From positions 381 through 64,380 of IMG/VR virus record IMGVR_UViG_3300045988_148153: a DNA stretch of 64,000 bases; one strand, written 5' to 3'. A program made the translations under genes and the position numbers. The notes beneath the pieces were generated by a model. The model had not been told where the DNA came from, ran no database searches, and saw only the letters and a list, made by a program, of their open reading frames with translations. Below, piece by piece: positions 5,756 to 47,076 of the stretch. Source of the stretch: a virus. How positions within the stretch are numbered: the first letter of the stretch is position 1; each line of letters begins with the position of its first letter.

Positions 5756-5768
5756 TTTATACACGATT

Positions 5769-18642: not shown

Positions 18643-20343
18643 TTAATCGGTTACACAATATGCTGTATTGGCATCCTTAGAGCCAAGAGCCTCGTATTCA
18701 GCGGCGGTTTTCTTGGTGAGGGTGGTGAGGTTGTCACTACGAACAACATCTGTGATTACAATCTTATTCTCACTGCTTGTTTCCGATACATCATAATAGT
18801 ATATATAGCAAGATTTTAATGTTGAACCGTAACCAAAAGTAAATAGCAATTCAAAATATCCATTTCCCGGTTCTGATAAACAATACTGAATATTTGCATT
18901 TATGATATATCCAAAATAATTTCCAGCTTCTTCATCGTAATGTCTTGCGCTAAACCTAAGACCTCTATATCTCCCTTCAGCGTAATTCTCAGCAAATGAT
19001 ATAAAATTGCCAAATAATTCGTTAACCAATCCTTGTACGGTTTCTCCTGTTATAACGGTGTTATTAATCCATTTATTGAGAATAGTACCGTCTACGTTTC
19101 TAACAAGAATTTTATCATCCACATACTTCTTCGTCGCCGGATGATAAGGCTTCGTAGGCGTATATTCGGTCTCATTGTTTTTAGTGAGCACATCTGACTT
19201 TTCTGGAACTTCCACCCAATCTCTATTTTTACGACCGTAGACGTTACCGTTAGAGGGGGCTTCGTAAATATGATTTAAAACCTGAGACGATTTGGTAGCA
19301 ACTCCATCCGTGACTGTTACAACTAATTGGAAAGTCGTTTCTGTAATAATTGCCATCATAAAATTAGCATTATTAGCATCCGTATAGGTAGCCATCGCCA
19401 TTATCGGAATATATACAAGTTTCATCCCTGATTCTTCGGGGATGTTTGCCACAACACATACAGTATCTTTATTGACGATGCTCTGACATATATCCATGAA
19501 AGCGTCTTTCCCACCAAAGGCATTAAATATCTCATCGGGTGTTGCTTGGTCGCTTAGGCTCATCACAGCAACAGGAATAACTACCACGTTCCCCGAACCG
19601 CCGCCCGCTATCTTCCCTTGATTAACCCAGCCGCCGTTTACCCATGCGTAGTAATCATAAGGGGCTTCCGTACCTACGGCCATGAACCCGTCAACTGCCG
19701 AACCGTCGGGAACGGCGGATTTCAAGGCTTCAAGGGTGGCGTATTCGCCGGAGACACGGAAAGAGCTTCCCGGTTTGCCCTTGCAATAAATACCCGTCTT
19801 GTCGAAGCTATCTGTTTCTTTGTTATACACATAGACATAATGGTCTGTTCCTATATAGGTCGGATTGTTGGCAACCTTTTCGGCATCTTGTGCGGCTGTA
19901 TTAGCGGCTTCTGCTTTTTCTTCAGCATTTGATGCGGCGTTGTTTGCGGCTTCTGCTTTTTCTTCAGCATTTGATGCGGCGTTGTTTGCGGATTGAGTAG
20001 CTGCTTCCGCTTCTTCTTTTGCTGCGGTGGCATCGGATGCAGCTTGTGCCGCCAACTCTGCTTTCTCATTGGCGGTATTTGCGGCTGTCTGTGCTGCGGT
20101 GGCATTACTTTCTGCTTTATCGGCGGCTTCGTTTGCTTTATCAGCAGCTTCCAAAGCAGGAGCAACCAACAATTCAAGAGATGCTTTTACCACGGTAGGC
20201 ACTTCTGTTCCGCTTGCCGGTTGATAGGCCGGAAGAGATGATATGTCATCCGTGCTTTCCGCATCCGGCACTTCATTAACCCCTATGGATTTAGCCATAA
20301 GACGGGCAACTATTTCTTGATAATCCTGTTCAGTCCAAGCCAT
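18643..20343 (-). CDS. tail fibre protein with Ala/Glu-rich coiled-coil stalk
   Basis: 566-aa ORF with an N-terminal AADKANEAADKAESNATAAQTAANTANEK... low-complexity helix and a globular C-terminal part. Confidence 0.6.
   Translation of the reverse strand: MAWTEQDYQEIVARLMAKSIGVNEVPDAESTDDISSLPAYQPASGTEVPTVVKASLELLVAPALEAADKANEAADKAESNATAAQTAANTANEKAELAAQAASDATAAKEEAEAATQSANNAASNAEEKAEAANNAASNAEEKAEAANTAAQDAEKVANNPTYIGTDHYVYVYNKETDSFDKTGIYCKGKPGSSFRVSGEYATLEALKSAVPDGSAVDGFMAVGTEAPYDYYAWVNGGWVNQGKIAGGGSGNVVVIPVAVMSLSDQATPDEIFNAFGGKDAFMDICQSIVNKDTVCVVANIPEESGMKLVYIPIMAMATYTDANNANFMMAIITETTFQLVVTVTDGVATKSSQVLNHIYEAPSNGNVYGRKNRDWVEVPEKSDVLTKNNETEYTPTKPYHPATKKYVDDKILVRNVDGTILNKWINNTVITGETVQGLVNELFGNFISFAENYAEGRYRGLRFSARHYDEEAGNYFGYIINANIQYCLSEPGNGYFELLFTFGYGSTLKSCYIYYYDVSETSSENKIVITDVVRSDNLTTLTKKTAAEYEALGSKDANTAYCVTD
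19904..19987. repeat. perfect 42-bp tandem duplication inside the tail fibre stalk
   Basis: gcggcttctgctttttcttcagcatttgatgcggcgttgttt occurs twice, encoding NNAASNAEEKAEAA twice. Confidence 0.9.
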
Positions 20344-24907: not shown

Positions 24908-25377
24908 TATACAGAAAGAATAATTTGTGTTTTGGGGTCGGTTACCCGAAATGTAATATTAAAAGTTACAACATCTCCCTCATCCGTATTACGAACGAAA
25001 AGGTCATGCTTTATGGATTTGAAATAAATTCCTTGCCTGCCTATTTTAGTATAAGTGTCATAAACCTTCAGTTCAGTTCCGTAACCATCTTTCCCAATCA
25101 GATAGTCCAGGAAGGCGATAATCTTTTCATTGGCCGCCCCCATATCCCCTTTATAGGCAAACTCTACGTCCATATCATAGGCTTGCATACAGAGTTCTTC
25201 GGGGAAAAAAGTGTCTTCTCCGTCTTGGTCTATCCAGTCTCTTTTGGGCAAATCCTTAATCTCTCCATATACAGTAAAAGGGAAATCCTTGCACACAATC
25301 CCCCATTGGGACTGCGTATCAATAACAGGACTTCCCAGTTTACTTTTTTGAAAATAGATACTGTAAGGTTTTGCCAT
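24907..25377 (-). CDS. distal tail protein (Dit-like)
   Basis: 156-aa ORF preceding the Tal-like gene. LPKRDWIDQDGEDTFFPEE...DVEFAYKG resembles siphovirus tail-family proteins. Confidence 0.5.
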   Translation of the reverse strand: MAKPYSIYFQKSKLGSPVIDTQSQWGIVCKDFPFTVYGEIKDLPKRDWIDQDGEDTFFPEELCMQAYDMDVEFAYKGDMGAANEKIIAFLDYLIGKDGYGTELKVYDTYTKIGRQGIYFKSIKHDLFVRNTDEGDVVTFNITFRVTDPKTQIILSV

Positions 25378-25395
25378 GTGTTATTTTGAGTTTGT

Positions 25396-25476
25396 GTCGT
25401 AAAAAACAAAAAGAGCCAATCAACGGTATATCCGTTAATCAGCTCTTTGGCTTGTATTATCAATACTGCAAATATA
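25396..25476 (-). promoter_or_regulatory. late leader A: -7 box TATATTTG(CA), a 17-bp hairpin and a U-tract upstream of Dit
   Basis: The reverse complement of 25469-25476 is TATATTTG. Hairpin arms lie at 25410-25448 and are followed on the minus strand by TTGTTTTTT. It is homologous to the leader at 46806-46873. Confidence 0.55.
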
Positions 25477-25544
25477 TGGTGTATTTTCTAAATAATCAAA
25501 TAAAATATTAGAAAATTACCGTGATTTGCACGAAATGTCTGTAT

Positions 25545-25739
25545 CTAAATAACGCTCTTCTGCTTTTTGATAAGATGTCTGTTTAGCGCTTTCAAGTCAA
25601 AAGGTTTTTGTGTAATGATAGAGTTGGTTTTAATGATTGTCATACTCTCTCTTCCTACTAATTTCATTATTTCTATTTTTTCATACTGTATGTCTCTGAT
25701 TATTTTTGAAAGTCTATTCCTTATGGTGTTTATGTCCAT
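25545..25739 (-). CDS. hypothetical small protein (paralog of 27511..27702)
   Basis: Both share the R..L..II.DIQ.EK.EIM ... KP.FDL..LN pattern. Confidence 0.5.
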   Translation of the reverse strand: MDINTIRNRLSKIIRDIQYEKIEIMKLVGRESMTIIKTNSIITQKPFDLKALNRHLIKKQKSVI

Positions 25740-25929
25740 AGCTCTACTTTTTTAAGGTAAGACATAGGGAAATGTCGCCTGATGTGGCGGTTAACGACAA
25801 CACTATGCCTATTTAATCTTGTTCCAGTGCAACCGCCACGGAGCAATGGTAAGACAACGTTGTTTACAAAACAAACTTACGCATTTTTAGCTGTTGTTCA
25901 AAACATAGCCTTGCTATTATTTCATTTTT

Positions 25930-26709
25930 CTATTGATTGATAGAGCTATTCAGAAACTTATTTACGAAGTAGACCTGCCCTTTTCCCGTAAGTTTTGTCG
26001 TAATTGTAGTATGTAATACTCCGCCGCTACCTGAGCGTACGCCTTTCTTTATCTCGAACAATCCCTGTTCTACATATTGTTGATTCGGAATGTTGTATCG
26101 CTCTCCATGCTTACCTAAATACCCGTTTTCACGCATCCATGCAAATAACCTCTTTTCTCCGATAGGGTATCCATTCTGTGTGATAATCTTTGCTAATTCT
26201 CCGATTAAGCAAGAACTATTCGCTGATTGTACGGCATTGGTAAAAGCTATGGCGGGAGTGGCTTCGGCAACTTTCTGTTCTGCTTCAACTCTCTTTTGGC
26301 GTTCCTCTTTCAAATTCTGTAATGCTTGTATAGCGAAATCCGGATTAGCAAGTAGTTGCTCTATGGTAATATCTGTAGCATAGATTCCATACTTGCGTAT
26401 TGAAGGTAACACTTCGCCACATACCCAATCTTGAAATTTTTCAGCGTCGGGAAGATTGCTTCTCATTATTAAACGATATACATCCTTTTCAGGAATATAT
26501 ATCATATTTACTCCACCAATGCCGTTTTCGTGTGGGTGAAACACCTTTTTGCCTGATTTACAATGCCTTTGTATGGCGTCTGCCGTATCAGAATATCCTA
26601 ATGCAGCGGCTACATCTTTTGCACAAAACAAAGGTTCATTGTTTTCGTTCATTATAATTCTTACTTCTCCGAATTGTTCGTTTTTGAAAATCTGAATACT
26701 ATTTTTCAT
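25930..26709 (-). CDS. Bro-N / KilAC-type phage antirepressor
   Basis: The N-terminal IQIFKNEQFGEVRII..NEPLFCAKDVAAALGY is a Bro-N domain. The C-terminal half (IGELAKII...RLFAWMRENGYL) resembles an antirepressor KilAC domain. Confidence 0.75.
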   Translation of the reverse strand: MKNSIQIFKNEQFGEVRIIMNENNEPLFCAKDVAAALGYSDTADAIQRHCKSGKKVFHPHENGIGGVNMIYIPEKDVYRLIMRSNLPDAEKFQDWVCGEVLPSIRKYGIYATDITIEQLLANPDFAIQALQNLKEERQKRVEAEQKVAEATPAIAFTNAVQSANSSCLIGELAKIITQNGYPIGEKRLFAWMRENGYLGKHGERYNIPNQQYVEQGLFEIKKGVRSGSGGVLHTTITTKLTGKGQVYFVNKFLNSSINQ

Positions 26710-27136
26710 AATGTTGCTTCTTTATATTAAATGAAAAGGGGAGCACCAGCCTAACCGTATAAAGTGGAAGTTTACGAGTTAGACCGATGTCCCCAAATAT
26801 CTTTATCTATGCAGAACTTCCACAAACTGCAACTGTGATAGCTATCTTGTGGGAGCAAAGTTATTAAGCATTTGAATATCAGTCAAATGTTAATTATTCC
26901 CCTTTTAATCTTACTTTGATAAAGATGAAACAGAATGAAACAGCGTGAAATAAAATGAAATTGATTACATGATAAAAAAGTTACTTTATTCACTAATTTA
27001 GATGCTGTATATACAGTACTCTAATTAACGTTTCATTCTGTTAATTCAATAAGCGGATTATAGTTCCTTGTTAACAAATGGTAATTATTGTGATACTCAT
27101 AACTTTAAGTTATTAAATAATTAATTGTGTAACAGA

Positions 27137-27421
27137 CTATTCCTGCTTAGGTGTTAATCCCATACTTGCCATGTCAAACAAACGTCGTAAGCAATTTGCC
27201 GATAGCAAAACCTTCTTTCCTGATAAGATGTAGTCTTTTTGATGGATAAACCACTTCTCAATAAAGTTTTTACCCTCTTTTTCGTCGGCAAAAAATAATT
27301 GGCTTATTTCATTCAGACTGCACGGATATTCTGCTCCGGCGTTATGCTTGTTTACGACATTACGTACATATTCCTTTATTTTAGGGATAGGGGTGGAGTA
27401 GGTGAGCTTATTTGTTTTCAT
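27137..27421 (-). CDS. hypothetical protein
   Basis: 94-aa ORF within the island. Confidence 0.45.
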   Translation of the reverse strand: MKTNKLTYSTPIPKIKEYVRNVVNKHNAGAEYPCSLNEISQLFFADEKEGKNFIEKWFIHQKDYILSGKKVLLSANCLRRLFDMASMGLTPKQE

Positions 27422-27510
27422 ATTCTTTCCTTTAAATTATAATTTATCTATTGCCAACCCGCCAGCCGTATTACTGGCGGGACATCGTAACATGAACGTT
27501 GGTCGAAACC

Positions 27511-27702
27511 TCAACATGCATCTATGCTAACATGTGGCAATATATTCTTATTAAGTCTTCTAAGGTCAAAATTCGGTTTAGAAGCATTTGGGTTGCATTT
27601 TTTGACAGACATAGGAGATAGCATCCTCATTATTTCCAACTTCTCCTTCTGTATATCGAGTATAACTTCATCCAGTCGCTTTCTTAATTCTTCCATATTC
27701 AT
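27511..27702 (-). CDS. hypothetical small protein (paralog of 25545..25739)
   Basis: See the entry for 25545..25739. Confidence 0.5.
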   Translation of the reverse strand: MNMEELRKRLDEVILDIQKEKLEIMRMLSPMSVKKCNPNASKPNFDLRRLNKNILPHVSIDAC

Positions 27703-27844
27703 TTTGGGTATAGTTGTGGCTGTCGGGCATTGGAACCGACTGCCGGATGATTAAAATAGCGTGATTAGTATTTTCTCATGCAGACAACGAGTAAGGTTAT
27801 AATGGATATAACAACGCTTATAATAGCCAATGTTAAATTCCAGT

Positions 27845-28081
27845 TTATAGGATTGTATAAACGAGGGTCTCAAACAGATATTCTTTTCCAAATTGAGTAA
27901 GACGTATATCCCAGACTTCACCATTAACCAAATATGTGCACCTTACAAGCCCTTTGTCTTGCAGGGAATGTGCGGTATGTGAATACCCTTTACGTACTAC
28001 ATTACCGGGAGCATTGGCAAAGTTCGTATTTAATATACGTATCACTTCCTTTTCTGATTTGGAAAGTCTTATTCGTTCCAT
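27845..28081 (-). CDS. small winged-helix-like protein (paralog A)
   Basis: It begins MERIRLSKSEKEVIRIL and contains LQDKGLV. It lies in tandem with its paralog and overlaps it by 13 nt. Confidence 0.5.
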   Translation of the reverse strand: MERIRLSKSEKEVIRILNTNFANAPGNVVRKGYSHTAHSLQDKGLVRCTYLVNGEVWDIRLTQFGKEYLFETLVYTIL

Positions 28082-28416
28082 AACCTCTCATTCAATAAGG
28101 TACATCCAACAAACAACGCAAGTAATGTAGATACGGCGGTAATCGTTGAAAGAACAATCAAGATGATGTCTCTCCACGGAATAGGATTTTTCAGCATGGG
28201 GTTGTATTCCATGTATGCCTTTCCTTTTATTGTAAGTTTTGCCATATACACTACTCCGTCTTCGTCAGCCTTATATGATACAAGTCCTTTTTCTTTCAGA
28301 AGGTCAAGGGTTGTCACAAATAGAAATGGAGAACAGTTCAATGGTAGCTTCTTGCCATTGATGCTGACACTTCTGAACACAGCCTTTTCTTCTTTTGACA
28401 ACCTTATACGTTCCAT
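28069..28416 (-). CDS. small winged-helix-like protein with C-terminal TM helix (paralog B)
   Basis: It begins MERIRLSKEEKAVFRSV and contains LKEKGLV. The C-terminal IILIVLSTITAVSTLLALFVGCTLL is a TM segment. Confidence 0.5.
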   Translation of the reverse strand: MERIRLSKEEKAVFRSVSINGKKLPLNCSPFLFVTTLDLLKEKGLVSYKADEDGVVYMAKLTIKGKAYMEYNPMLKNPIPWRDIILIVLSTITAVSTLLALFVGCTLLNERLWNE

Positions 28417-28463
28417 AACCTACTCGTTTTCTGCAAATTTACTAAATAATACGCAAAAACATG

Positions 28464-29312
28464 TTATGCAGCAGGGTCAATTTCACCCTTAATCTGCTTG
28501 ATGGCTCTCCTCGCATTCCACTCGTTTTCGTACAAGGCGATAATGAAGCGTCTGCCCCTTTCAGTCCATACCGTATATACATTGGTTCCTATCGAACCGT
28601 CCGAACGAGTATATGTCTGGGTACGGGTGGAGTGTAATCCCCAAGTAGAGTAGGGAGAGTGGAGTAACCATTGTCCCGATTGGCGATAGATAATTCCTGC
28701 TTCCTTTAGTTTCTTGTGCAGTTTCTCTGCGTCCATTCCTATCTGCTTGGCGATTTGTGTGCTCGTCAGAGTATTTACGCTTTGCAGGTGATTGTTGTAG
28801 TAGGTGACTTTGGGAGCCGCTTCCTTGATTTCCTTGTCTTGCAGTTCGATGGTGGCTTGCTGTTGCTCCGTTTCAGCTTCAAGCTGCTTTAACCGTTCCT
28901 CTCTTTTTGCAAGCGTGGCTTGTGCGATGGTTAGCGCACGTGCCATGATTTCTTCGGGAGTATCGTTTGGGACGGTGGAGATGTAGCCGCCAGTGGTTCG
29001 TACTTCGTGAAGGATTTGTTTAACTCCTTTCTTGAATTGTTTGGCGATTGGCTTGCGGGATTGCATGAGGACTTCGTATAATCCCCCTTCTGTAAGCATC
29101 CAAACTTGCTGATTTCCACCGGGGGTTACGAATTGTGTAACACCTTTCTCGTCATCATCTACTAAAGACAACATGTGAGAAATGTTGTTGTGATTAATAA
29201 CTTCTGCTACATCTTTTGCACGAAACAGAGGTTCCTCAACTGTTCCGTAAACAGTGAATTGCCGTCCACACAATTCTGTTTGTTTTAGGACTTGAATAGG
29301 ATTTGTTAGCAT
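28464..29312 (-). CDS. Bro-N domain antirepressor-like protein
   Basis: FTVYGTVEEPLFRAKDVAEVI...GGLYEVLMQSRKPIAKQFKKGVKQIL is a Bro-N domain, followed by a coiled coil and a C-terminal DNA-binding-like region. Start set at the ATG at 29312 (MLTNPIQ). Confidence 0.7.
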   Translation of the reverse strand: MLTNPIQVLKQTELCGRQFTVYGTVEEPLFRAKDVAEVINHNNISHMLSLVDDDEKGVTQFVTPGGNQQVWMLTEGGLYEVLMQSRKPIAKQFKKGVKQILHEVRTTGGYISTVPNDTPEEIMARALTIAQATLAKREERLKQLEAETEQQQATIELQDKEIKEAAPKVTYYNNHLQSVNTLTSTQIAKQIGMDAEKLHKKLKEAGIIYRQSGQWLLHSPYSTWGLHSTRTQTYTRSDGSIGTNVYTVWTERGRRFIIALYENEWNARRAIKQIKGEIDPAA

Positions 29313-29691
29313 AACAAAAAAAATGCACCTACTACGAGCTGCTAACAAATCCATAAGATTAATGTCGGAGGCGTTTCCGCTACTCCACTCGGTAGGTGCA
29401 ATATCTTTAAAGTATGATATTACTATAATATGTCTTGGCAAAAAAAATAACTCTATATGGTAGAGCCATAAGAGTTTGCCTCTCTTATGAACTTGTTAGC
29501 ACTGCAAAGATAGATATAATCTTTAAAGATGCAAACTTCTTATAAGAAAATCAACTGTTTATGTGAATTTTCTAAGTTTTTATGCGAATATATAGAAAAT
29601 TTTCTATTTGCCACAAGTTTGATATATTATAAAAGCATAAACATGTTACATAACATACCCAATATAATTACAACAGATGTTAATAAAGACG

Positions 29692-29699
29692 TATCTTTG
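29692..29699 (+). promoter_or_regulatory. Bacteroides-type -7 box TATCTTTG for the membrane/lipoprotein operon
   Basis: It matches TAnnTTTG and lies 33 nt upstream of the 29733 start. Confidence 0.45.
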
Positions 29700-29732
29700 C
29701 TGCATGTTTGAATAAATAATAAAAAAAGTAGT

Positions 29733-30215
29733 ATGGAAGGTTTTATAATGGTACTTGTTTATATTGTCTCATTGGTATGGGCAATTCTTAGCATTATACT
29801 TTTCTTTAAAGTATGGGGAATGACAAATAGGGTAATTGACATTCAAAATCTATTTGAAAAGCACTCTAAGAATGTTGATGATAAATTAGGGGGGCTAATT
29901 GCAACATTAGAAAAGATGAAAGAAGCGCCAAAAATAGAATTAAATTCCAATAAAACGGAAATCAAACATCCGGAAGGTTGTGAGACAAATGTGGTTAAAA
30001 ACACTACTATGAGTGTAATAAAGAGAAGAGAAGCCAAGGTGTTGTCGCAAAAAATAGAAAAGGAGATTGATAAATCTTCTAATGAGTTTAAGCAAAAATT
30101 ACATAAGTGGCAGGTTTTAAAAGAAAAAGGTTTTATAGAACAAGCTATTGAAGAATATCAAGAATATACAGGTCTTGATTATGATGAAGCTGTTGAATTT
30201 GTTAAAGAATTATAA
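29733..30215 (+). CDS. N-terminally anchored membrane protein with L7/L12-CTD-like tail
   Basis: TM segment VLVYIVSLVWAILSIILFF. The C-terminal IEQAIEEYQEYTGLDYDEAVEFVKEL resembles the ribosomal L7/L12 C-terminal motif. Confidence 0.55.
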   Translation: MEGFIMVLVYIVSLVWAILSIILFFKVWGMTNRVIDIQNLFEKHSKNVDDKLGGLIATLEKMKEAPKIELNSNKTEIKHPEGCETNVVKNTTMSVIKRREAKVLSQKIEKEIDKSSNEFKQKLHKWQVLKEKGFIEQAIEEYQEYTGLDYDEAVEFVKEL

Positions 30216-30245
30216 TAACTATTTATGTTTTAATTTTAGATTAAT

Positions 30246-31271
30246 ATGAGCCAAGAACAACAGAATAATGGCATGTCAGGAACTGGTTGTGCGATACTTT
30301 TAGTAGGGATAATAGTTTTTGCCATTTTGCTATTTTCAGACCATTATATTTGGGGAGCTATTGTTCTCGGAGTTACTACTGCTATATCGCAAGCTGTAAG
30401 CAATTCAGATAAGAGAGAAGAAAGAGAAGAGGAGCGGAGGGAATTGCAAAAGAAAAAAGAATTGGAAGCCCAAAAAAGAAGTGAGAAAGAAGAATTAGAA
30501 AAAGAGGAAAGAATAAAAGAATACGGTGAAATATCCTATGAATATCAGTCTAAATGTCCGTATTCCAAAATAGAAGTGTACGAATCAACTCAAGTCGTAT
30601 ATCTTAAATACGGAGAAGAAGTATGGATGTTTAATTTTTCTGACATTATAAAAGTAGATATATATGAAGATGGGAGAATTAGCTCATCTATTACTTCTAC
30701 AAGTGGAACATCAAAAGCTAAAACTTCAAGCATGATAGGTCGGGCAGCCGTAGGAGGTGTGCTTTTAGGTGGTGCAGGAGCAGTTATTGGAGGAGCTACT
30801 GGTAAAAGAGAACTTGGAGAAACTTCTACCACAAAAACGCAAGAAGTAGTTGTTTACTCAATGGTTATAACGATTAATAATTTATCAATGCCAACTATCC
30901 AAATAAAAGCGAAGTATGAGGAAGCCAAAGAATTTATAAAAAGAGTAAGCTCCGTATTGTCTATCATAATAGAAAGGCAGGATAAAGGGACTGACAACAA
31001 TACCAAAATACAGATATTACATGAGGGGAATGAATATTCAGAAGTAAATATTGATATATTAAAATTGCTATCTGATACTTATGGGGAAGGTAGAATAAAA
31101 GGGTTACCAAAAGCTCTTGAATTATACAAAGAAAAAATAAACAAAGATGGTTCTAATTTTACTGAATATTTGGAAGAATTGGTTATGTCAGATGATGAAA
31201 TATTATCAGACAACGAAAAGAATACACTATTGTCTGATATATCCTTTGTAAAACGAATGAATAATAGATAA
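30246..31271 (+). CDS. membrane protein with coiled coil and glycine-zipper segment
   Basis: It has two N-terminal TM helices, an EEREEERRELQKKKELEAQKRSEKEELEKEE coiled coil and a GRAAVGGVLLGGAGAVIGGATG glycine zipper. Confidence 0.55.
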   Translation: MSQEQQNNGMSGTGCAILLVGIIVFAILLFSDHYIWGAIVLGVTTAISQAVSNSDKREEREEERRELQKKKELEAQKRSEKEELEKEERIKEYGEISYEYQSKCPYSKIEVYESTQVVYLKYGEEVWMFNFSDIIKVDIYEDGRISSSITSTSGTSKAKTSSMIGRAAVGGVLLGGAGAVIGGATGKRELGETSTTKTQEVVVYSMVITINNLSMPTIQIKAKYEEAKEFIKRVSSVLSIIIERQDKGTDNNTKIQILHEGNEYSEVNIDILKLLSDTYGEGRIKGLPKALELYKEKINKDGSNFTEYLEELVMSDDEILSDNEKNTLLSDISFVKRMNNR

Positions 31272-31432
31272 TCTTTTTATTGTGAGATTGCATATCCCCG
31301 TTCCTCATGGTTCGGGGATTTTTATGTTTTATATGTAATAAAAACACTACAATAAAATTGAATTAATATAATGTTTAATTAAAATTAAACCTTTAACTTT
31401 GCCGCACATTAATTAACTAAAACACATGCTTT

Positions 31433-31816
31433 ATGAAAAAGTTTTTGATTTTATTATGCTCTGTTTTCTTGTTTTCATCATGTATGAGCATATTTTCAAG
31501 CTCTAAACAATCTATCACTTTTATGGGAGAGAACGGCACAAGGCTGTATGACGGAACTAATAATGTGAAATTGGCAGAAATAAAAGAAGGTGGCTCTGCT
31601 ACAGTAAAAATTAAGAAAAAACTGTCAGACAAAACGATTATTGCGAAAAAAGAAGGTTTTAAGGATACACCTTTCGTTATAGAATCTTCGTTTAATGCTA
31701 AATCTTTGTGGAATATATTATTTTGGCCAGGTTTTTTGATTGACCTCGGAACGGGGAAGATTAATAAATACGACCCTGTTATTTACAATATAGAAATGGA
31801 CGATAAGAGTAATTAA
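31433..31816 (+). CDS. lipoprotein
   Basis: Signal peptide MKKFLILLCSVFLFSSC with a lipobox Cys. Confidence 0.65.
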   Translation: MKKFLILLCSVFLFSSCMSIFSSSKQSITFMGENGTRLYDGTNNVKLAEIKEGGSATVKIKKKLSDKTIIAKKEGFKDTPFVIESSFNAKSLWNILFWPGFLIDLGTGKINKYDPVIYNIEMDDKSN

Positions 31817-31839
31817 TAGCAATATCTAAATAAATAATA

Positions 31840-32232
31840 ATGAAAAAGATTTTATTTTTACTGGCAATGCTGCCAATGTTTGTTTTTAGTGCGTGTTCGG
31901 ATGATGATGATTTTGACTATCCAATGGAAACCTTATACGGTACATGGGATGTGACGGATGTAAAAGTAGAGGGCAAATGGTATGACGTGACTACATACCC
32001 ATATACAAGGTTTGGTATGTCTATATCTTTCAAGTCCGATGGTTCTTTTTATGGTAGAGGCTATTTAGGGAACGGTAGCGGTACATATAAGGCATCAGGA
32101 AATACTATTGTTACTTACTTGGATGGCGAAGAATATATAAGATATACGGTTAAATCCTTGTCAGGTGACAATGCTGAACTTACCATGTCAATGGATGGAG
32201 AAAGTCTGGATATTAAGGCTGAAAAGCAATAA
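31840..32232 (+). CDS. lipoprotein, lipocalin-like
   Basis: Signal peptide MKKILFLLAMLPMFVFSAC with a lipobox. The mature part begins ...LYGTWDVTDV, typical of small lipocalin-like domains. Confidence 0.65.
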   Translation: MKKILFLLAMLPMFVFSACSDDDDFDYPMETLYGTWDVTDVKVEGKWYDVTTYPYTRFGMSISFKSDGSFYGRGYLGNGSGTYKASGNTIVTYLDGEEYIRYTVKSLSGDNAELTMSMDGESLDIKAEKQ

Positions 32233-32253
32233 GTTAAAATTGAAATAATTATT

Positions 32254-32288
32254 CAAGTCAAGCGGAGTTTTTTCGCTTGACTTGTTTT
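32254..32288. terminator. bidirectional rho-independent terminator
   Basis: 11-bp stem CAAGTCAAGCG/CGCTTGACTTG followed by TTTT, located between convergent genes. Confidence 0.7.
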
Positions 32289-32300
32289 GTATTAGAGAAA

Positions 32301-32870
32301 CTATTCTGCATGTATTCTTTCAATCTTTATTCCGTGGGCTTTGAGGTATTCTGTTAATGTTATGGTATTTATTTTTAGAAAGTCACAGATACTTGGTAGC
32401 TTTTGGAATAATTTACCGTCATTTTGTGATTTTGTTTCTTCTGTAAGAACACTTATGCCGGCTGGCATAATTTTATATTGTTCCTTGTGATACATGCAAT
32501 ATATAATAATGCGCCCATCGCCAGATTTTAGAAACTCCTCTTTTTGCAAAACATACTCTTCTTCCGTAAGTTCATTTTTTAGTAGCCTTACACAAAAATT
32601 ATTATCAACAAGGTTATGGAACTTCTTAGGAGAGGGGAGAAAAATCTCTGTAGTGTTTACGGCATACTTCACTTCTTTTAAATAAGGCATAGCTTTTATT
32701 GCAATACCTTGCGATGTATATATAGCTTCCTGCTGAATAGCATCTAATAAGATGATTTCACCAGTCTCCAAGCCTTTCTTAATGAAATTAGTTAATATTC
32801 CATTTATATCTAATGGCAAATAGTATCTTGCCATTGCTACCAACGAACAAGTATCTATTACTATTGCCAT
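32301..32870 (-). CDS. DUF4411-like PIN-fold protein (putative nuclease/toxin)
   Basis: The N-terminal AIVIDTCSLV resembles the first acidic PIN motif. It overlaps the upstream ImmA/IrrE-like gene by 10 nt. Confidence 0.6.
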   Translation of the reverse strand: MAIVIDTCSLVAMARYYLPLDINGILTNFIKKGLETGEIILLDAIQQEAIYTSQGIAIKAMPYLKEVKYAVNTTEIFLPSPKKFHNLVDNNFCVRLLKNELTEEEYVLQKEEFLKSGDGRIIIYCMYHKEQYKIMPAGISVLTEETKSQNDGKLFQKLPSICDFLKINTITLTEYLKAHGIKIERIHAE

Positions 32871-34000
32871 AATATTTTTTCAAATTTCTCAGGTTTGATA
32901 TTTAGACGCTTGCAAAATGTCATTTCATTAACAATTCCCTTAAAATAAGCATACTGCATGGATTTTAAGAATAAGGGAGAAAGAATTGGTTTAGGTGACA
33001 TCCCAAACCTTTTTTCTTTTTGTAAGCTTCCTTTTTCTTTGCGTTCCTGATATTCCCGAATAAGGTTGTTTTTAATTATATCGTATTGATTAAAGGTCAT
33101 TTTTTTATCAATATACAAACGGGTGAAAATTGCCAATTTGCTAATATGTGTTTGATTGCTTATATTGGCGATATAATCCATATAGTAATCGTTGTCCGCA
33201 TTTACTTTGGAAATGATTTCTAATTTCTTTGCAGCTTCTCCCATTATAAAGTAATATGCAAAATCGTTGCACCATTTCTCTACAACGTTTTGTCGGTTTT
33301 CAGCATCTATATTCGCTATATCTACCTGCTCTACTTCTTCTTTTCCAAGCATATAATGCCCGAGTTCGTGGGCAAATGTAAATATTTCCCTCTTATAGTG
33401 CTTATGACGCTTTAAGACTATCATATTAGGCTTTAAATAAAAGCCATCAATATTGGTTTTTTCTTTTTTATTCCAATTTTCAATATATTCAAACACAAAA
33501 ACATTATGCTCTGCACATTTATGAATCATTGCTACGAGAAATTTCTTTGTGTCTTTAATATCCCCCGGATAGAAGTAATTTCGTGCAATACGGGCTATTT
33601 CAATGGGGTTATCTTCTATTGAATAATGGGTTATATTGGGGTGTATATTTAATTTTGAAAGTTTATTGTAAGCGTCAATAGTCTGTTTTAATGTTTCAAA
33701 TCTATGTATTGTACGTATAGATTCATTATTTAACTCTATTCCAAATTTACTTTTTCTGAAAAGTATGCTGTTGCTTTTTGATGTAGTTAATGGAGAAAAA
33801 TCTGTGTAAAACTCTAATCCCTTATCAAATATTTTATCTACTTTCTTTAGTAAAGACAAGTCTATCACATTGCAGAAAATATTATCTTTTTGGATTTCTC
33901 TTTTTCTTCCCTTGTTAAGTATAGACAATAAAGATTCTTCCGACATTCTATATAATGCCAGCAAATAATCTATGCGTTCTTTATTTATCTCTACTTTCAT
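32861..34000 (-). CDS. ImmA/IrrE-family (COG2856) zinc metallopeptidase
   Basis: FTFAHELGHYMLGKEE is the HEXXH core characteristic of the ImmA/IrrE family. Confidence 0.7.
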   Translation of the reverse strand: MKVEINKERIDYLLALYRMSEESLLSILNKGRKREIQKDNIFCNVIDLSLLKKVDKIFDKGLEFYTDFSPLTTSKSNSILFRKSKFGIELNNESIRTIHRFETLKQTIDAYNKLSKLNIHPNITHYSIEDNPIEIARIARNYFYPGDIKDTKKFLVAMIHKCAEHNVFVFEYIENWNKKEKTNIDGFYLKPNMIVLKRHKHYKREIFTFAHELGHYMLGKEEVEQVDIANIDAENRQNVVEKWCNDFAYYFIMGEAAKKLEIISKVNADNDYYMDYIANISNQTHISKLAIFTRLYIDKKMTFNQYDIIKNNLIREYQERKEKGSLQKEKRFGMSPKPILSPLFLKSMQYAYFKGIVNEMTFCKRLNIKPEKFEKILWQ

Positions 34001-34289
34001 TAGTTAATTATATTGGAATATCAGCGTTCAAAAATACAAAAAACTATTATATAGTTACTTGTTTCCTTTATATTTAACAAAGAAGAATAGGGTTGTTTGA
34101 TAGTGAAATTTTAGTCTTAAGACTAATATATAAAGAGTTAATGTGTTAACTTATAGGGAAATACGACTTTAAAAAACAATGTGTATTAGAGAACGTTATA
34201 ATAATATGCTTTTAAACATGCAAATTTTCATTAGAGGTATATATTATATTTAGATTTTCACTATTTTTGTTATAAAATAAAGCGGCTAT

Positions 34290-34490
34290 ATGGATAGTAA
34301 CAACTTAGAAAACAGAATTGAATTTAGTAAGACACTCGCCTTTAAAGTAGATGATGATATGGAGGAAAATGATACTACTTTAATTGATTGGAAGACAGAA
34401 GCCATAATAACGGGGTATACTTGGGCGTATTGTATAAACAAGCCATTAGGGAAAACAAAAAAAGATAGCCCGTTGAAACCTACCAAGTGA
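34290..34490 (+). CDS. hypothetical small acidic protein
   Basis: 66-aa ORF followed immediately by a hairpin and T-run. Confidence 0.4.
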   Translation: MDSNNLENRIEFSKTLAFKVDDDMEENDTTLIDWKTEAIITGYTWAYCINKPLGKTKKDSPLKPTK

Positions 34491-34512
34491 GCTACGTAAA
34501 CGCGTAGCTTTT
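34490..34512 (+). terminator. rho-independent terminator
   Basis: Stem AGCTACG/CGTAGCT with a 6-nt loop, followed by TTTT. Confidence 0.5.
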
Positions 34513-34606
34513 CAGTTTGCAACGAACTATCTTTTCTGATACAAAGGAGGTTTTCTTGTATGGTTATATACTAAACCAGGAGAGAAATAGCTAAAGGATT
34601 TATAAT

Positions 34607-34795
34607 ATGAATGATGTAAAACGAATAAAAAACATTACAAGGAGCCGCCAAACAAGGACTAAAGGTGATAGATTAGGGTGGGCTTTAAGAAATGAGGTTG
34701 AACATCCTCCCTTGCGTGAAATTGTCGGAGAAGGAAGAATTGTTAGTGACTCTTGCTGCTTTATTTCAGCCTCTACGAAAAGAATTATACAATAA
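34607..34795 (+). CDS. possible small basic protein
   Basis: 62-aa ORF that ends at a terminator hairpin. Support for coding is weak. Confidence 0.3.
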   Translation: MNDVKRIKNITRSRQTRTKGDRLGWALRNEVEHPPLREIVGEGRIVSDSCCFISASTKRIIQ

Positions 34796-34822
34796 AGCCA
34801 GACATTAAGTCTGGCTTTTTCT
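34795..34822. terminator. bidirectional terminator at the right edge of the cargo island
   Basis: Stem AAGCCAGAC/GTCTGGCTT followed by TTT. It overlaps the stop codon of 34805..35311. Confidence 0.6.
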
Positions 34823-35311
34823 TTGCAATACATCACCTTCGGCTTCTACGGTACAATCCTCTCCATGAATATAGACATACACTGATGCTATATCCTTTTG
34901 GATAACATTTACTTTTGCCCGGTCGTACACATTAATGAATACCTTGCAATACTGAGAGCAGTCAATGGTAACTTCACTGTCATGGCGCACATAAACATCA
35001 CATACGGAAAAGCCGTCGAATAGGAGAGTGCCTTTGCAGTTCCCGTTCAAAACAGCTATTTGTGGTATATTACGTTTCTGTACATCTTCATCCACGAAGA
35101 TACCGTTTTTGTGAAGAATAGCTTTGTCGAAGTTTTCCTTTATGAAAGTGTTGGTGGGATAATTGTGTTTAATAGCAAAATCAATCCCATGCAGCCACTT
35201 GTCAATCAACCCTTGTTGGTCGGGAGTTCCCCATGCTTGTTGCCACGGCTGGCATAAACCAAGTGTGATTGCTTGGTTTAGTAATGTTCTGCTTAAATCC
35301 TTTTCGTTCAT
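34805..35311 (-). CDS. hypothetical protein, paralog of the partial gene at 63629
   Basis: The two share an N-terminal LL..A...G.CQ...G... architecture and a C-terminal repetitive beta-type region. Confidence 0.55.
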   Translation of the reverse strand: MNEKDLSRTLLNQAITLGLCQPWQQAWGTPDQQGLIDKWLHGIDFAIKHNYPTNTFIKENFDKAILHKNGIFVDEDVQKRNIPQIAVLNGNCKGTLLFDGFSVCDVYVRHDSEVTIDCSQYCKVFINVYDRAKVNVIQKDIASVYVYIHGEDCTVEAEGDVLQRKSQT

Positions 35312-35332
35312 AACGCATTATATTGTCAATAT

Positions 35333-38300
35333 TTAACGGAAATAAAATCCCTTATCTTTCGTTAGCTTAGCTGAATGTATTTCATTCCTTAGTTCGGAAA
35401 CCTCATTAAGGATTGCTTCATTACTGTCGGCGGTTCTTCTTGTATTTTCTGTAATCATACTCAGTTGCCGCAGTTGTGCTTCTGCTATAACATTCATCTT
35501 GGGAAAATCCTCTTTGAAAAACCTTTCTTGTAATGTCCGTTTTATACTTACATCGGCACGGATACTGTTTAAGTAGGAAGCCAAAATATTAGCGGTGTCT
35601 TCTGTTATGTTTTCCTGTATCCCTTTGGAAAGTGTATTTGAGGCACTTGTCTCTTCAAGGCTTATTCCCATTTTTTTTGCAGCGGCATTTAGATAATCCC
35701 ATATCTTTTTTGAATCAGAGATTGTGCCTCTAAGGCTCCCAAGTTGTTGCATTAGCCCGGCCGCCTCTTGTTCGGTTAGATTGGTTCCCCCCGCAGAACT
35801 ATCCGTAAATATACCCTTGTCTCCAAACAGATAATCCCTTAGACTATTCATCGATTTCTGTATGACATTTGCAGAAATCATCTCCTTTATGACATTGCGC
35901 ATAATATCAGCCACCGTATCATCAAAAGCCTTTGCCGCATCTTCTCCGTTGGCAAATGCATTAACTAAGGCTTCTGATATTTGGTCTGCCCAACCTTTTA
36001 TGCCTATACCAAACTGCTCACTTGCCAAATCTTCATAGAAGTATTTGATTTGTTCGCCCAACTCGATATACTGCTGTCGGTAGTCCTCTATTTTAGAACT
36101 GTCAGGGTCTTTTTTATCTGCCTCTGCCTGCGCCTGTTTTATAACCTCTTCTCTCTGTTTTTGAAGATTGGCAATCATTTCTTTGGATTGACTTTGAGTA
36201 ACAGCGCCCAATTGCCGTTCAACGATAGATTGAAGATTTTTGTAATCATTAGAAAGCTTCTTCACTTCCAATTGGGAACGCTGAATTGCTTTGTCAAGCT
36301 TCTTGTCATGGGCTTTGGCTATACTTCCTATAATTCCGGTAATACCACTGACGACACCTGTAGCCCCCTGCATGATAGCCATCGGGTTGCCGGAAGATAT
36401 ACCAGCGAAAAGGGTAGCACCGCTTTGGGCGGTATTCAATAATCCACCCGCAACTTCTTGCACAGTACTTAGAGTTTCTCCCATACTGTCATTCCCTAAG
36501 GCATCAAATGCTGACCCTAAATCTCCCAAAGTGCCGATAAGAAGATTAGCCATGTCGACAACATCTCCAAAGCCTACTTGAACTTTGTCGGAAGCTGCAT
36601 TTTGTTCGTCTTGTGCATCAGTAACTTCCCTTTCCGCATCAGCTAATGTTTTTAATTTAGGAGTTAATTTATCAACGACTTTAGTCTGATAGGATAAACC
36701 GCTATCTGTTTTCTTGGTTTCGGTATGACTTGTTTCTGAAATACCGGTAGTAACTTCACCGCCATTTTGAATAAACCCAAGCTCTTTTTGAGCTTTTTTC
36801 AGCTTTTTGGTGGCTTCTGCATACTCTTTTATGCCGTCTGACAATGTTTTGAAAGGGTTTCTGCTTTCGCTTTCATCGCGTAGCTTTTTTAAAACATTGA
36901 CAAGCTCCTTGAACTCGTTAACTTTTAAGCTTTGTCCGGTCGTATTTTTAAACTCTTCCAGGTTCTTGATTAGCCTATCAAGAGTTGCAGAAGATAGTCT
37001 ATCAAGGTCATCAAAGGTCTTAGCCCAGTCTTCCGAACTTTTGAATTGTTCAAATTTGGTTGATGCAGCATCTTCGCTCGCTTTCTTTTTCCTTTGCGCT
37101 ATAAGTCTATTTGTGGCTTCTTCTCCTAATTGCCCTCTTTGGCTTTCAATATCTGCTAAGTCCTTTTGAAGATTACGTTCAATATCCTTTATTTTTTGGG
37201 CATAATCTTTATAATCCTCTATCATGCCTAAAAGATTTTCAAGGCTTTCTGAACGCATCTTCTTACTTTCCTCGTTGATTGATTGGTATAGCTTCAGAAT
37301 AGCCCCTTCCCCAAATCGCTTCTTTACATCATCTTCTTTCATGGCAAGCACATCTGTAACAGAGAATTTACTGCCTGTTTCAGCAAGTGCTTTAGAAAGC
37401 TGGCTTCGCAAATCATCAACCATGCTTTTAAATGACACTTCTCCACCAAAGGCTATGTTCATGGAAAGAGATTTGTTTCCGGAAGCATTAAACAGCTTTT
37501 TGTATAAATCCCACTTTTCTCCGGTTTGGGAAATATACTTTTCTATCTCCTTTAAGGTATTATCAACTTCTTTCTTTGCGCTATCAATTCCCGCCTTGTC
37601 AATCTTGACACCAAGAGAAATGTATAAATCTTCCTGTTTTTCTTTACTGCGGTCTAACTGTCCTTGAATGTATTTGTAAGCTTTGCTTGGGTTGTTCAAA
37701 TCTAAATTAACACCCTTCTCATCAAAAACAGATGAAAACTCGGATATGCCTTTTACTCTTTGGGTAGCCGCTTCATCTCCTTCTATCTTTCTCCATTTCT
37801 CATAGCTGGAAAGGGCTTTTTCTATAAGGTCGGAACGGTCTTTCCATTGTTCAGCGATAGGGTCTTTCGTGTTTTGGGTCTCTTTGGTTACACGCCCGAA
37901 TGTTTTTAGTATTTCATCTGTGGCATTCTTTAACAGCTTGGCTTTGTCTATACTTTTACGAGTTTCTTCATTCCATTCACCCTCTTTTTTAGTCCATTCG
38001 CTAAGAGTAGAAGCCGCATCTTCATTAGCACCGATTATACTTTCTATATACTTTTGAAAACCTCCTTCTGCATCAGGCTTTAGCCTCTCAATATCAAATT
38101 TCTCGTATAATTCAGTTGCTTTTTTGAACCAAGCTGGTTCCTTCCCTTGCTGCCCTCCTTTTGTGCTTGTATATGTTTCATATGTTTTTAAAGCATCATT
38201 TAATGCTTTTTGAGCTTGTTCTAAAACTTCCGTTTGGGACTTTATTCTTTTGTCAATATCACCTAACTTAGCAGACCCACCGGGCAAAGTTGCCACTTGC

Positions 38301-46787: not shown

Positions 46788-46805
46788 CGTGTTTTAGTTT
46801 ATGTT

Positions 46806-47066: not shown

Positions 47067-47076
47067 GCAAATATAT
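47067..47076 (-). promoter_or_regulatory. -7 box TATATTTGCA (minus strand)
   Basis: The identical 10-mer occurs at 25467-25476 (-), 47150-47159 (+) and 54569-54578 (-). Confidence 0.45.

Follow-up and report, generated by a model that had tools for sequence, protein, structure and literature searches.

In the immI region of bacteriophages P1 and P7, the c4 antisense RNA keeps production of the antirepressor Ant in check (PMC8201110), and the RNA class c4-2 is a likely distant homologue of c4 (Weinberg 2017, PMC5737381). RosmerTA systems are defined by ImmA-type antitoxins with diverse toxins, and one phage-encoded example has been validated (bioRxiv 10.1101/2022.05.11.491447; PMC10440598). 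Their RmrT toxins are heterogeneous, and ImmA-family proteases also cleave repressors of mobile elements, for example in the ImmA/ImmR system of ICEBs1 (PMC10440598). DUF4411.1 genes downstream of a DUF955/ImmA-family gene have been predicted to form a toxin-antitoxin (TA) system (Matelska et al. 2017, PMC5499597). A c4-2 RNA, antirepressor-like genes and an ImmA-DUF4411 gene pair occur together in one stretch of viral DNA, positions 381 to 64,380 of the IMG/VR record IMGVR_UViG_3300045988_148153. This whole stretch of 64,000 nucleotides is called the window below. The three elements lie in a slot that separates the tape measure protein (TMP) gene and its downstream neighbour from the gene for a Dit-like tail protein. 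The nearest named phages at the protein level are Bacteroides phage LoVEphage, Bacteroides phage BI-TP1 and Phocaeicola phage PV4-TP1, with 57% identity for TerL and 51% for the Dit-like protein. Passages of the LoVEphage paper (PMC8525569) that matched a term search make no mention of the slot.

The comparisons reported here make it probable that the slot is a family-wide site for accessory genes, which occupies an already existing junction of two late (tail) transcription units. As a phage cargo hotspot it is real but of a familiar kind, and it is found in a family of human-gut Bacteroides phages. Searches with p168, the 168-residue protein encoded directly after TMP, and with the Dit-like protein each gave 80 IMG/VR loci. 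In BLASTN comparisons with 80 IMG/VR loci, backbone homology stopped at 25516/25517 on the Dit side (59 loci) and returned at 34789-34795 on the p168 side (62 loci); outside these edges it was present in 53-80 of the 80. Because homology to the relatives breaks at these points, we place the variable slot at 25518-34788, inside a p168-to-Dit stretch of 9427 bp. The first-pass annotation, made from the letters of the window, had proposed an AT-rich island of about 9.3 kb at 25477-34804, between the TMP block and Dit. The stretch is indeed there, and its limits needed only this refinement. The genes listed for it (two Bro-N genes, duplicated small genes, a membrane/lipoprotein block and an ImmA-DUF4411 pair) were all recovered. 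The remark that none of them looked structural agrees with our searches of Pfam and PHROGs, which gave no structural-protein match for the slot genes tested.

The GC content of the slot is 34.4%, compared with 40.1% in the rest of the window, and lies below that of all 363 other segments of 9.27 kb (minimum 37.2%). The same tendency was seen in all 76 relatives compared, in which the slot was poorer in GC than its flanks (means of 35.4% and 41.4%). The composition is nevertheless uneven. The part from 29.5 to 34.8 kb has 30-33% GC, whereas the part from 25.5 to 29.4 kb has 36-44% per 1-kb segment (30-46% per gene), which is near the backbone value. The proposed AT-richness thus holds for the slot as a whole, but not for the Dit-proximal 4 kb or so.

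Within the close clade, the slot was occupied in 87 of 87 cases, including the window. The distance between p168 and Dit was 2281-9098 bp, and never zero, in the 76 of 76 IMG/VR loci that carried both markers; the 9427 bp of the window are the largest value. The contents were far from constant: 83 unique slots resolved into 63 cargo clusters, each of which occurred on one strand only, and the cargo differed in every member of the close clade. Close relatives therefore did not share the same genes, and none matched its flanks in composition. Empty sites were found in three more distant lineages (L208; L211/L212; L213/L214), in which TMP, p168, Dit and Tal are contiguous. Here p168 is 50-63% identical and the Dit homologue 51% identical to the window's proteins, and the spacer between the two genes measures 76-166 nt. 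This contiguity indicates that the occupied slot is the derived state; the comparison with related phages had been proposed in the first-pass annotation and speaks in its favour. In all three lineages, a TAnnTTTG promoter is present in the empty-site spacer, accompanied by a leader hairpin in L208 and L213 and by a terminator in L211, which indicates that the seam between the late operons is older than the cargo. The cargo would then have built up where one late operon already bordered on another. We also considered that the promoter copy in front of Dit arose to compensate for the island. This idea was rejected, since the lineages with empty slots already carry the promoter.

Both edges of the slot are marked by predicted transcription signals. 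The bidirectional terminator that had been predicted at the TMP-side edge is present as a hairpin, which lies at the end of late operon 1 and forms the left edge of the variable slot. On the Dit side, the predicted copy of the late leader and the remnant of the divergent promoter at 47.1 kb were also borne out by element matches. The late-type promoter TAGAAAATACACCATATATTTGCA at 25467-25490(-) matches the element at 47066-47089. The leader hairpin at 25410-25448(-), a 17-bp stem with a U-run directly before Dit, matches 46815-46849 and folds with -24.9 kcal/mol (z -5.2). A 16-mer at 25502-25517 recurs unchanged at 47122-47137, within the 5' end of the terminase open reading frame (ORF), indicating that the promoter segment in front of Dit was copied from the divergent region at 47.1 kb. 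This right edge was kept in 32 of 32 sequence variants among the relatives.

Both late operons (46788-47089(-) and 25378-25490(-)) open with the promoter TAGAAAATAyACyATATATTTGCA; a 16-17-bp hairpin with a U-run comes next, directly before the first gene. In the 47-kb copy, a 57-aa Zn-ribbon-like ORF lies between promoter and hairpin. The leader hairpin contains G.U pairs on the transcribed strand, and relative L153 swaps two of them for Watson-Crick pairs. An Rfam search with the late leader hairpin gave no family. A terminator-like leader so close to the promoter suggests that the late genes may be under antitermination control. A third, degenerate copy of the late-type promoter, TAGAAAATTTTCTATATATTCGCA, is located at 29583-29606(-), upstream of the promoter region of the antirepressor-like gene ant; it has three mismatches, and its -7 box reads TTCG instead of TTTG.

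Sharing of slot segments among the relatives was strikingly uneven. Five segments (27458-27549, 27702-27856, 28385-28465, 29496-29600 and 31340-31436) were common to 25-68 of the 80 loci, while the genes between these shared linkers were common to only 1-20. The linkers are mostly intergenic, and some hold the promoter motif; the one at 29496-29600 was found in 49-68 of the 80 relatives despite differing neighbour genes, and the linkers around g63 and g94 (27458-27549 and 27702-27856) in 43-61 loci. The nearest relative, L005, shares all of the slot except 28994-31295, whereas L017 shares only the genes g160 and g341. We infer that cassettes have been exchanged by homologous recombination at the linkers and the conserved flanks. 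A possible trace of such an exchange is the segment 34290-34795, common to 10-20 loci: the last ten residues of g66 (KKDSPLKPTK) are also the C-terminus of a DUF3800/PDC-M04A-type cargo protein in the slot of L016, so that g66 looks like the scar of a cassette replacement by recombination. The proposal of an inserted island consequently needs to be divided. The region is derived, variable and of lower GC content, but it is a mosaic of cassettes with shared short linkers and not a single island.

The strongest support for a defence or lysogenic-conversion hotspot comes from recognised defence genes in the slots of relatives. PD-Lambda-1 (E 1e-155) was found in seven slots, and the slots of relatives also contained a GajB-like UvrD helicase (E 6e-71) and DUF3800/PDC-M04A (E 8e-16). 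NYN and GNAT proteins, a LmuA-like protein (weak match), an outer-membrane beta-barrel protein and a Big_2 lipoprotein were also present. With PD-Lambda-1, the GajB-like helicase, DUF3800/PDC-M04A and NYN at the same site, the earlier suggestion that the slot carries defence, exclusion or conversion cargo is supported. The cultured phage BI-TP1 (L215, PQ571265.1) has a slot of about 4 kb at the same position (4950-8895), with a DUF4065-domain gene and its small partner, a KilA-N regulator and a carboxypeptidase-regulatory-like protein. We take DUF4065 to be the Panacea antitoxin domain. A reverse transcriptase is encoded further downstream in BI-TP1, past the tail genes.

LoVEphage, BI-TP1 and PV4-TP1 resemble the phage of the window in being temperate and in the order of TMP, the 168-aa gene, the slot, Dit and a large tail protein; in BI-TP1 the resemblance extends to opposite-strand cargo and a KilA-N regulator in the slot. 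They differ in their cargo (the DUF4065 pair and the carboxypeptidase-regulatory-like protein), in the lack of a nucleotide match to the slot region and in that no c4-2 RNA was found. A megablast search with 24000-36500 against 50,697 GenBank phages gave zero matches, so the slot region has no nucleotide-level match among them.

Similar hotspots are known from other phages. The slot shares with phage moron loci, such as those of the lambda type, and with defence hotspots the conserved flanks, interchangeable cargo, own promoter and terminator motifs, lower GC content and defence systems at the same position in relatives. Defence hotspots of this kind were reportedly described for P2 and P4 by Rousset and colleagues in 2022. 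What sets the present site apart is its location inside a tail module, between a TMP-associated gene and Dit, at an internal seam between late operons. It also appears to house an immI-like regulatory module, and exchange seemingly proceeds via short conserved linkers.

This regulatory module makes up the Dit-proximal half of the slot, which, as a refinement of the picture of AT-rich foreign cargo, is probably better read as a semi-conserved module of the P1 immI type. Its most informative element is the c4-2 RNA. The Rfam match is full-length (1-79 of 79), and Rfam also identified c4-2 in L001, L010 and L017. Copies were present in 17 of 91 sources according to a model of our own, plus L017. 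This model was built from near-identical copies and iterated; the MAFFT alignment of the four Rfam matches was not structure-aware, and a second model added no copies. Among six distinct sequences, 17 of 25 base pairs showed changes on both sides, and 88% of cells were paired, compared with 33-50% when the partners were slid. The alignment used for this comparison was fitted to the model and hence leans towards the structure.

The RNA ends 8 nt before the ATG of ant, on the same strand, and it abuts an ANT-type gene in every copy checked (10 of the 17 loci, with all sequence variants covered). The length of 282 aa from the ATG at 29312 agrees with the 280-287-aa gene calls in relatives. Bases 50-62 of c4-2 (GGATTTGTTAGCA) are single-stranded and perfectly complementary to 29299-29311, starting one base past the A of the ant ATG; this 13-mer target is unique in the window. 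A second, partial copy of the target, TGCTAACAAGTTC, is located at 29489-29501, just downstream of the P_ant motif and upstream of c4-2. A perfect duplex of 13-14 nt at ATG+1 was found in five of seven sequence variants. In the same five, the RNA pairs with its own target over 13-14 nt and with the targets of other variants over 10 nt at most. In L010 the best pairing site is upstream of the ATG, and the RNA (9 nt) pairs best with its own target. The RNA of L016 does not, as its own exact duplex has 8 nt, compared with 10 nt for the target of L003; these eight Watson-Crick pairs lie at ATG+1 and can be extended by eye through one G.U pair. In L017, RNA and target are both wholly different in sequence and still match each other.

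Several features are shared with immI of P1 and P7. The antirepressor-type gene is immediately preceded, on its own strand, by a c4-clan RNA, an unpaired part of which is complementary to the site where translation of that gene begins. Relatives carry different matched pairs of RNA and target, as do P1 and P7. The second partial target copy upstream of the RNA recalls the a1b1 / c4 / a2b2 layout, reportedly described by Citron and Schuster in 1990. There are also differences. The complementarity here targets the start codon of ant itself and no icd-like ORF is present, the Ant protein consists of Bro-N and KilAC domains and comes from a Bacteroidota siphophage, and the module is located inside the tail gene cluster.

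The remaining genes of the Dit-proximal half are small or regulatory. ANT-type genes occurred in 81 of the 83 slots. The second antirepressor-like gene is preceded by a conserved 5' untranslated region of about 130 nt (26712-26860, minus strand) that is nearly invariant in seven variants. This region contains the interleaved complementary pairs GGAAGTT/AACTTCC and GGGGA/TCCCC in a pseudoknot-like arrangement; an Rfam search gave no family, and the region is too invariant for a covariation test. The g115/g78 family was present in 65 of 83 unique slots and had no match in Pfam, PHROG, PADLOC or NCBIfam. The paralogues g63 and g64 are 37% identical (tblastn). Scans of g160, g115, g78, g94, g63, g64 and the lipoproteins against PADLOC, PHROG and NCBIfam gave no informative matches.

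In the TMP-proximal half, the ImmA-DUF4411 pair stands out. With moderate confidence, we interpret it as a RosmerTA-like toxin-antitoxin or abortive-infection module, with the nuclease as the putative toxin. The two genes overlap by 10 nt, and a TAnnTTTG motif is located at 34029-34036, near the start of the ImmA gene. The best PADLOC match of the ImmA protein was capP (E 3e-11), followed by seven RmrA models with E 6e-6 to 3e-4, the longest covering residues 61-317. Its closest solved relative is an IrrE orthologue (weak match). In the DUF4411 protein, the acidic residues D6, D43, E48, D118, E145 and D151 are invariant across 13 homologues. A profile of these homologues matched the solved DUF4411 structures 9vzy/9vzz in the Protein Data Bank (PDB) with E 0.03 only, ranked below spurious Ras matches.

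At more than 90% identity, the pair was found only in the slot of this phage clade, where it occurred in 6 of the 83 unique slots (1 of 80 IMG/VR loci scanned). At 65% identity or less, the two genes are neighbours, with DUF4411 directly downstream, on chromosomes of Bacteroidota, Ignavibacteriota and Chlorobiota (about 20 loci). Adjacency in the chromosomes of several phyla indicates that ImmA-DUF4411 is a mobile two-gene unit. The likeness to RosmerTA, including the system of Gordonia phage Kita, lies in the adjacent genes, in the combination of an M78 Zn-peptidase weakly matching RmrA profiles with a small putative toxin, and in a phage-borne pair that moves horizontally as a unit. The partner is different, however, in that DUF4411 is PIN-like and without an RmrT match, and the peptidase has RmrA matches of E ~1e-5 and no detected helix-turn-helix (HTH) domain. 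The three-component HTH / DUF955(COG2856) / PIN-like TA class (PMC5499597) offers a second parallel, with DUF4411.1 downstream of a DUF955/ImmA gene and conserved acidic active-site residues. That class is itself a bioinformatic prediction, and it has a fused HTH-DUF955 protein where no HTH was detected here. Toxicity and defence by the pair, like the antisense action and processing of the c4-2 RNA, are predicted from sequence.

Between the pair and the regulatory module lies the membrane and lipoprotein block on the opposite strand. The protein g160 has a single N-terminal transmembrane helix, and g341 has transmembrane helices, a coiled coil, a PH-like domain and a glycine zipper. PF27000 PH_gly_zipper was found in all g341 homologues, and g341 also matches phrog_888 (E 1e-12). 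The g160-g341 operon occurs in only about 4-9 relatives. It is preceded by the TATCTTTG motif at 29692-29699 and followed by a hairpin with a T-run at 31302-31318, and a TAACTTTG motif (31394-31401) lies before lip127. The lipoprotein lip130 has the sequence SDDDD right after its anchor cysteine and a lipocalin-like domain (Pfam Lipocalin_4, E 4e-6). This acidic stretch may be a surface-export signal of the Bacteroidota. For g160, g341 and the lipoproteins, a role at the envelope is most plausible, for example in superinfection exclusion or surface alteration.

A number of observations weigh against the reading of the region as an accessory-gene slot with its own regulatory and defence modules. 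Relatives of p168 were absent from a scan of 185,579 representative genomes. As a consequence, lysogeny of this exact clade is deduced from long contigs and from relatives. Most of the relatives come from a single IMG/VR data set (3300045988), and the cargo census relied on crude ORF calling. Only 18 of 91 related loci yielded a c4-2 RNA, which was absent from BI-TP1, from the empty-slot loci and from slots with pRha-type ANT genes. Since ANT-type genes are near-universal and c4-2 occurs in roughly one locus in five, the ANT genes of other relatives must be under some different control. Between c4-2 and ant there is no icd-like ORF, unlike in P1, but only a gap of 8 nt. The action of Ant on a primary repressor is presumed from the likeness to P1. 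For the TA pair, the RmrA models give weak matches (E about 1e-5), no RmrT model of PADLOC recognises the DUF4411 protein, and neither Pfam nor NCBIfam detected an HTH domain in the ImmA protein. Finally, promoter and terminator function, as well as expression of the cargo from the prophage and its timing, are predicted from motifs. The first-pass annotation had credited the slot with TAnnTTTG promoters of its own. Nine copies of the motif are indeed well placed, in the right orientation and about 20-190 nt upstream of gene starts in the slot (and of Dit), but window-wide the motif is not enriched (73 sites versus 75 expected).

Other explanations of the region have to be weighed against these data. 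The slot might be an ancestral, integral part of the tail module, with late-expressed virion or assembly accessories of unfamiliar look. Occupation of all 87 close-clade slots agrees with this idea, as do the near-universal ANT-type and g115-like genes (81 and 65 of 83 slots), the near-backbone GC content and tail-gene orientation of the Dit-proximal half, and the degenerate late-type promoter upstream of ant (29583-29606). However, in three more distant lineages the same tail module is built although p168 and Dit are direct neighbours, close relatives differ in content (63 clusters), and the slot genes tested gave no structural-family match. Where domains were recognised they are regulatory, nuclease/peptidase or envelope-related, and a terminator closes late operon 1 before the slot. 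We consider an ancestral origin very unlikely. The chances that the slot is one recent mobile element (a transposon, integrative island or satellite inserted as a 9.3-kb unit) are just as slim. The sharp edges, the GC content below that of the backbone and the occurrence of ImmA-DUF4411 in bacterial chromosomes, at 65% identity or less, would fit such an insertion. Yet the slot ORFs scanned contained no recombinase or transposase domain, and a repeat search did not reveal direct repeats at the borders. Segments of the slot also differ widely in distribution, from 1 to 68 loci, and the contrast between L005, which shares all but 28994-31295, and L017, which shares only g160-g341, is not expected for a unit. 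A single mobile element was rejected, because the mosaic sharing points to piecemeal exchange of cassettes and neither recombinase genes nor border repeats were found.

A third explanation concerns function. The whole slot could be mainly a region for lysis-lysogeny control of the immI type, with ImmA as an anti-repressor protease, as in the ImmA/ImmR system of ICEBs1, and not part of a TA or defence module. The c4-2/ant module, the two ANT-type genes, the near-universal presence of such genes in the slot and the cleavage of mobile-element repressors by ImmA-family proteases (PMC10440598) all speak for it. Against this stands the rarity of ImmA-DUF4411, which at 6 of 83 unique slots cannot be core regulation, and the fact that the ImmA gene stays coupled to one for a PIN-like nuclease on the chromosomes of several phyla. 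In relatives, this slot houses PD-Lambda-1 and other defence genes, and the lipoprotein and membrane genes have no regulatory features. We regard control as the main purpose of the slot as improbable, although somewhat less so than the two preceding explanations.

If the region is an accessory-gene slot at a late-operon seam, as we prefer, late operon 1 would run from the capsid genes through TMP to p168 and stop at the terminator at 34794-34818. Late operon 2 would restart from its own late-type promoter and leader hairpin (25410-25490) and cover the genes for Dit, Tal, the fibres and lysis, in this order. DNA placed between terminator and late promoter would leave virion gene expression undisturbed, and for this reason cargo could have accumulated at the seam, where it would be swapped by recombination at the conserved flanks and at short, mostly intergenic linkers. 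In the regulatory switch, the 5' part of a promoter-driven transcript would fold into c4-2, and its 3' single-stranded region would pair with the ant start codon, blocking translation of ant until the RNA is titrated or no longer made. The different matched pairs of RNA and target in relatives would correspond to different immunity specificities. The small genes and then the second antirepressor-like gene would follow after ant. The hypervariable TMP-proximal cargo would run from its own promoters. In the ImmA-DUF4411 pair, the nuclease would be the toxin, which the peptidase protein would neutralise besides serving as a sensor, as in RosmerTA-type systems, while the opposite-strand genes g160/g341 and the two lipoproteins would act at the envelope, in superinfection exclusion or surface alteration.

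We tentatively consider a more far-reaching, though doubtful, interpretation, in which the slot is a pan-immunity locus of an abundant group of human-gut Bacteroides phages. Cassettes would be shuffled among co-infecting or co-resident relatives at the short linkers, some would encode novel exclusion or anti-phage systems, and heteroimmunity groups would be set by the c4-2/ant pairs. A recognised function is lacking for most of the 63 cargo families, for example the g160/g341 pair, the lipocalin-like and Big_2 lipoproteins and a DUF6722 membrane protein. If the interpretation were true, such unrecognised cargo would represent new superinfection-exclusion or anti-phage systems expressed from the prophage, and the heteroimmunity groups would decide which relatives coexist in one host or induce each other from it.

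The slot is easily located between the 168-aa post-TMP gene and the Dit-like gene, so that dozens of cargo sets can be mined from metagenomes. LoVEphage-related phages are widespread in gut Bacteroides/Phocaeicola, and the benefit of such prophages to their hosts is little understood. Known defence genes (PD-Lambda-1, RosmerTA-like pairs and DUF4065 in BI-TP1) beside unannotated membrane and lipoprotein genes may serve as a guide to new defence or exclusion functions in Bacteroidota. The c4-2/antirepressor pairs offer a testable case of immunity control by antisense RNA outside the enterobacterial P1 group, with natural compensatory variants at hand. Foreign DNA of 2-9 kb is tolerated by the tail operon at a terminator/promoter seam in its interior, which could be used as an engineering site in cultured relatives such as BI-TP1. 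The coordinates of the slot features and of the flanking genes are collected in Table 1.

Table 1. Features of the accessory-gene slot and its flanks, with positions in the window and the basis of each assignment.
Feature	Coordinates	Strand	Basis
Dit-like protein, 156 aa; right flank, first gene of late operon 2	24907-25377	-	AF2 (AlphaFold2) model and position
Conserved right slot edge: 16-mer remnant, promoter, leader hairpin	25410-25517	-	Conserved in relatives
g64, small protein, paralogue of g63	25545-25739	-	Translation, tblastn
Second Bro-N + KilAC (ANT) protein, 259 aa	25930-26709	-	Pfam ANT E 4e-30, Bro-N E 4e-25
g63 (27511-27702) and g94 (27137-27421), small proteins	27137-27702	-	Translations
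g115 and g78, paralogous small proteins; g115 with C-terminal transmembrane helix	27845-28416	-	44-nt repeat D3
ant, Bro-N + KilAC (ANT) antirepressor-like, 282 aa from ATG at 29312	28464-29312	-	Pfam ANT E 5e-25, Bro-N E 3e-15
c4-2 antisense RNA (Rfam RF02944, c4 clan)	29321-29401	-	55.2 bits vs gathering 41, E 2e-9
Divergent promoter region; P_ant motif TATCTTTG at 29505-29512(-)	29442-29732	.	Motif search
Membrane-protein operon: g160 (29733-30215), g341 (30246-31271)	29733-31271	+	Translations, Pfam, PHROG
lip127 (31433-31816, signal ...FSSC), lip130 (31840-32232, signal ...FSAC)	31433-32232	+	Translations
Terminator-like hairpin, 14-bp stem, between convergent DUF4411 and lip130 units	32254-32284	.	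Terminator scan
DUF4411 (PF14367) PIN-like nuclease, 189 aa, putative toxin	32301-32870	-	Pfam 33 bits vs cut-off 23.5
ImmA/IrrE-type Zn metallopeptidase (M78), 379 aa, HELGH motif; putative antitoxin/sensor, RmrA-like	32861-34000	-	Pfam Peptidase_M78 (PF06114) E 9.5e-10
g66 (34290-34490) and 62-aa ORF (34607-34795)	34290-34795	+	Gene calls in relatives
Bidirectional terminator-like hairpin, AAAGCCAGAC-ATTAA-GTCTGGCTTT with T-runs	34794-34818	.	Terminator scan
p168, 168 aa; left flank of slot, directly after TMP	34805-35311	-	phrog_10156 E 9e-37
Tape measure gene	35333-40282	-	Pfam TMP_3, E 1e-17

The two flanking proteins were examined by structure prediction. The protein p168 is 80-99% identical in 80 relatives and always sits between TMP and Dit, including in the empty-slot lineages. 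Its AF2 model (pLDDT, the predicted local distance difference test score, of 94.8) shows a helical N-domain and a beta-solenoid. At E<0.001 the model had no fold match in PDB or BFVD, where generic beta-solenoids and uncharacterised viral proteins alone appeared, and PDB sequence searches with p168 and with the 156-residue Dit-like protein gave nothing. Synteny suggests a place in the tail module, and p168 may represent an uncharacterised family of tail-module proteins of Bacteroides phages.

The Dit-like protein had no match in Pfam (e.g., Sipho_tail), PHROG or PDB sequences. Its AF2 model, based on 44 homologues, reached a pLDDT of 79.5. The top Foldseek matches in PDB were SPP1 Dit (2x8k), baseplate chains of 80alpha (6v8i) and TP901-1 (4v96), the Bxb1 tail tip and tube initiators of contractile injection systems; they are weak in score (E 0.009-0.04, TM-score 0.35-0.49), with probabilities of 0.92-0.99. 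A length of 156 aa leaves room for the N-domain of Dit alone, not for the C-terminal galectin-like domain. The gene overlaps the start of that for the 1414-aa (Tal-like) large tail protein, and in relatives whose slot is empty, TMP is followed by p168, then the Dit homologue and then a large tail protein. Weak fold matches and position together support, but do not prove, that the gene encodes a minimal Dit with only the N-domain.

The 64-kb window is phage DNA throughout. From the divergent promoter region at 47.1 kb, the terminase and portal genes are directed rightwards, and the capsid, tail and lysis genes leftwards, on the minus strand. One side of the window has genes for a RecE-like exonuclease, NinB, DNA methylases, a D5-type primase, a tyrosine recombinase and a Rha/Ant-like regulator. 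The phage is probably a temperate, LoVEphage-related siphophage of Bacteroides/Phocaeicola. We infer the host from the relatives, namely a protein from a metagenome-assembled genome of Bacteroides sp., BI-TP1 and PV4-TP1. With regard to lifestyle, tyrosine recombinases and a Rha/Ant-like regulator are encoded in the window, contigs of up to 110-372 kb carry genes of the clade, L208 is an integrated prophage on a 776-kb contig, adjoining a Bacteroidota-type integrase, and the cultured temperate phage BI-TP1 was obtained by induction.

A 283-aa tyrosine recombinase is encoded at 57314-58165(+) and part of a second one at 58759-59202(-); an exact sequence look-up with the 283-aa protein gave no identical record. 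Large tail proteins of some relatives (L192, L213) contain a Shufflon_N domain, and it is a possibility that recombinases like those in the window drive switching of tail fibres, instead of or besides integration. Repeats were noted at two further places: 42-nt repeats at 19879-20121 inside a 566-aa tail-fibre-like gene, and a 24-nt tandem repeat of about four units at 63890-63985, near the end of the window. Directly upstream of the tape measure gene, at 40285-40976(-), lies an HNH_3/NUMOD homing endonuclease gene that is split into overlapping ORFs of 149 and 104 aa. At the same site, L196 and L201 have an intact gene for 229-230 aa, and L197-L200 have none, which argues that the endonuclease is probably a mobile insertion that has suffered a frameshift in this phage.

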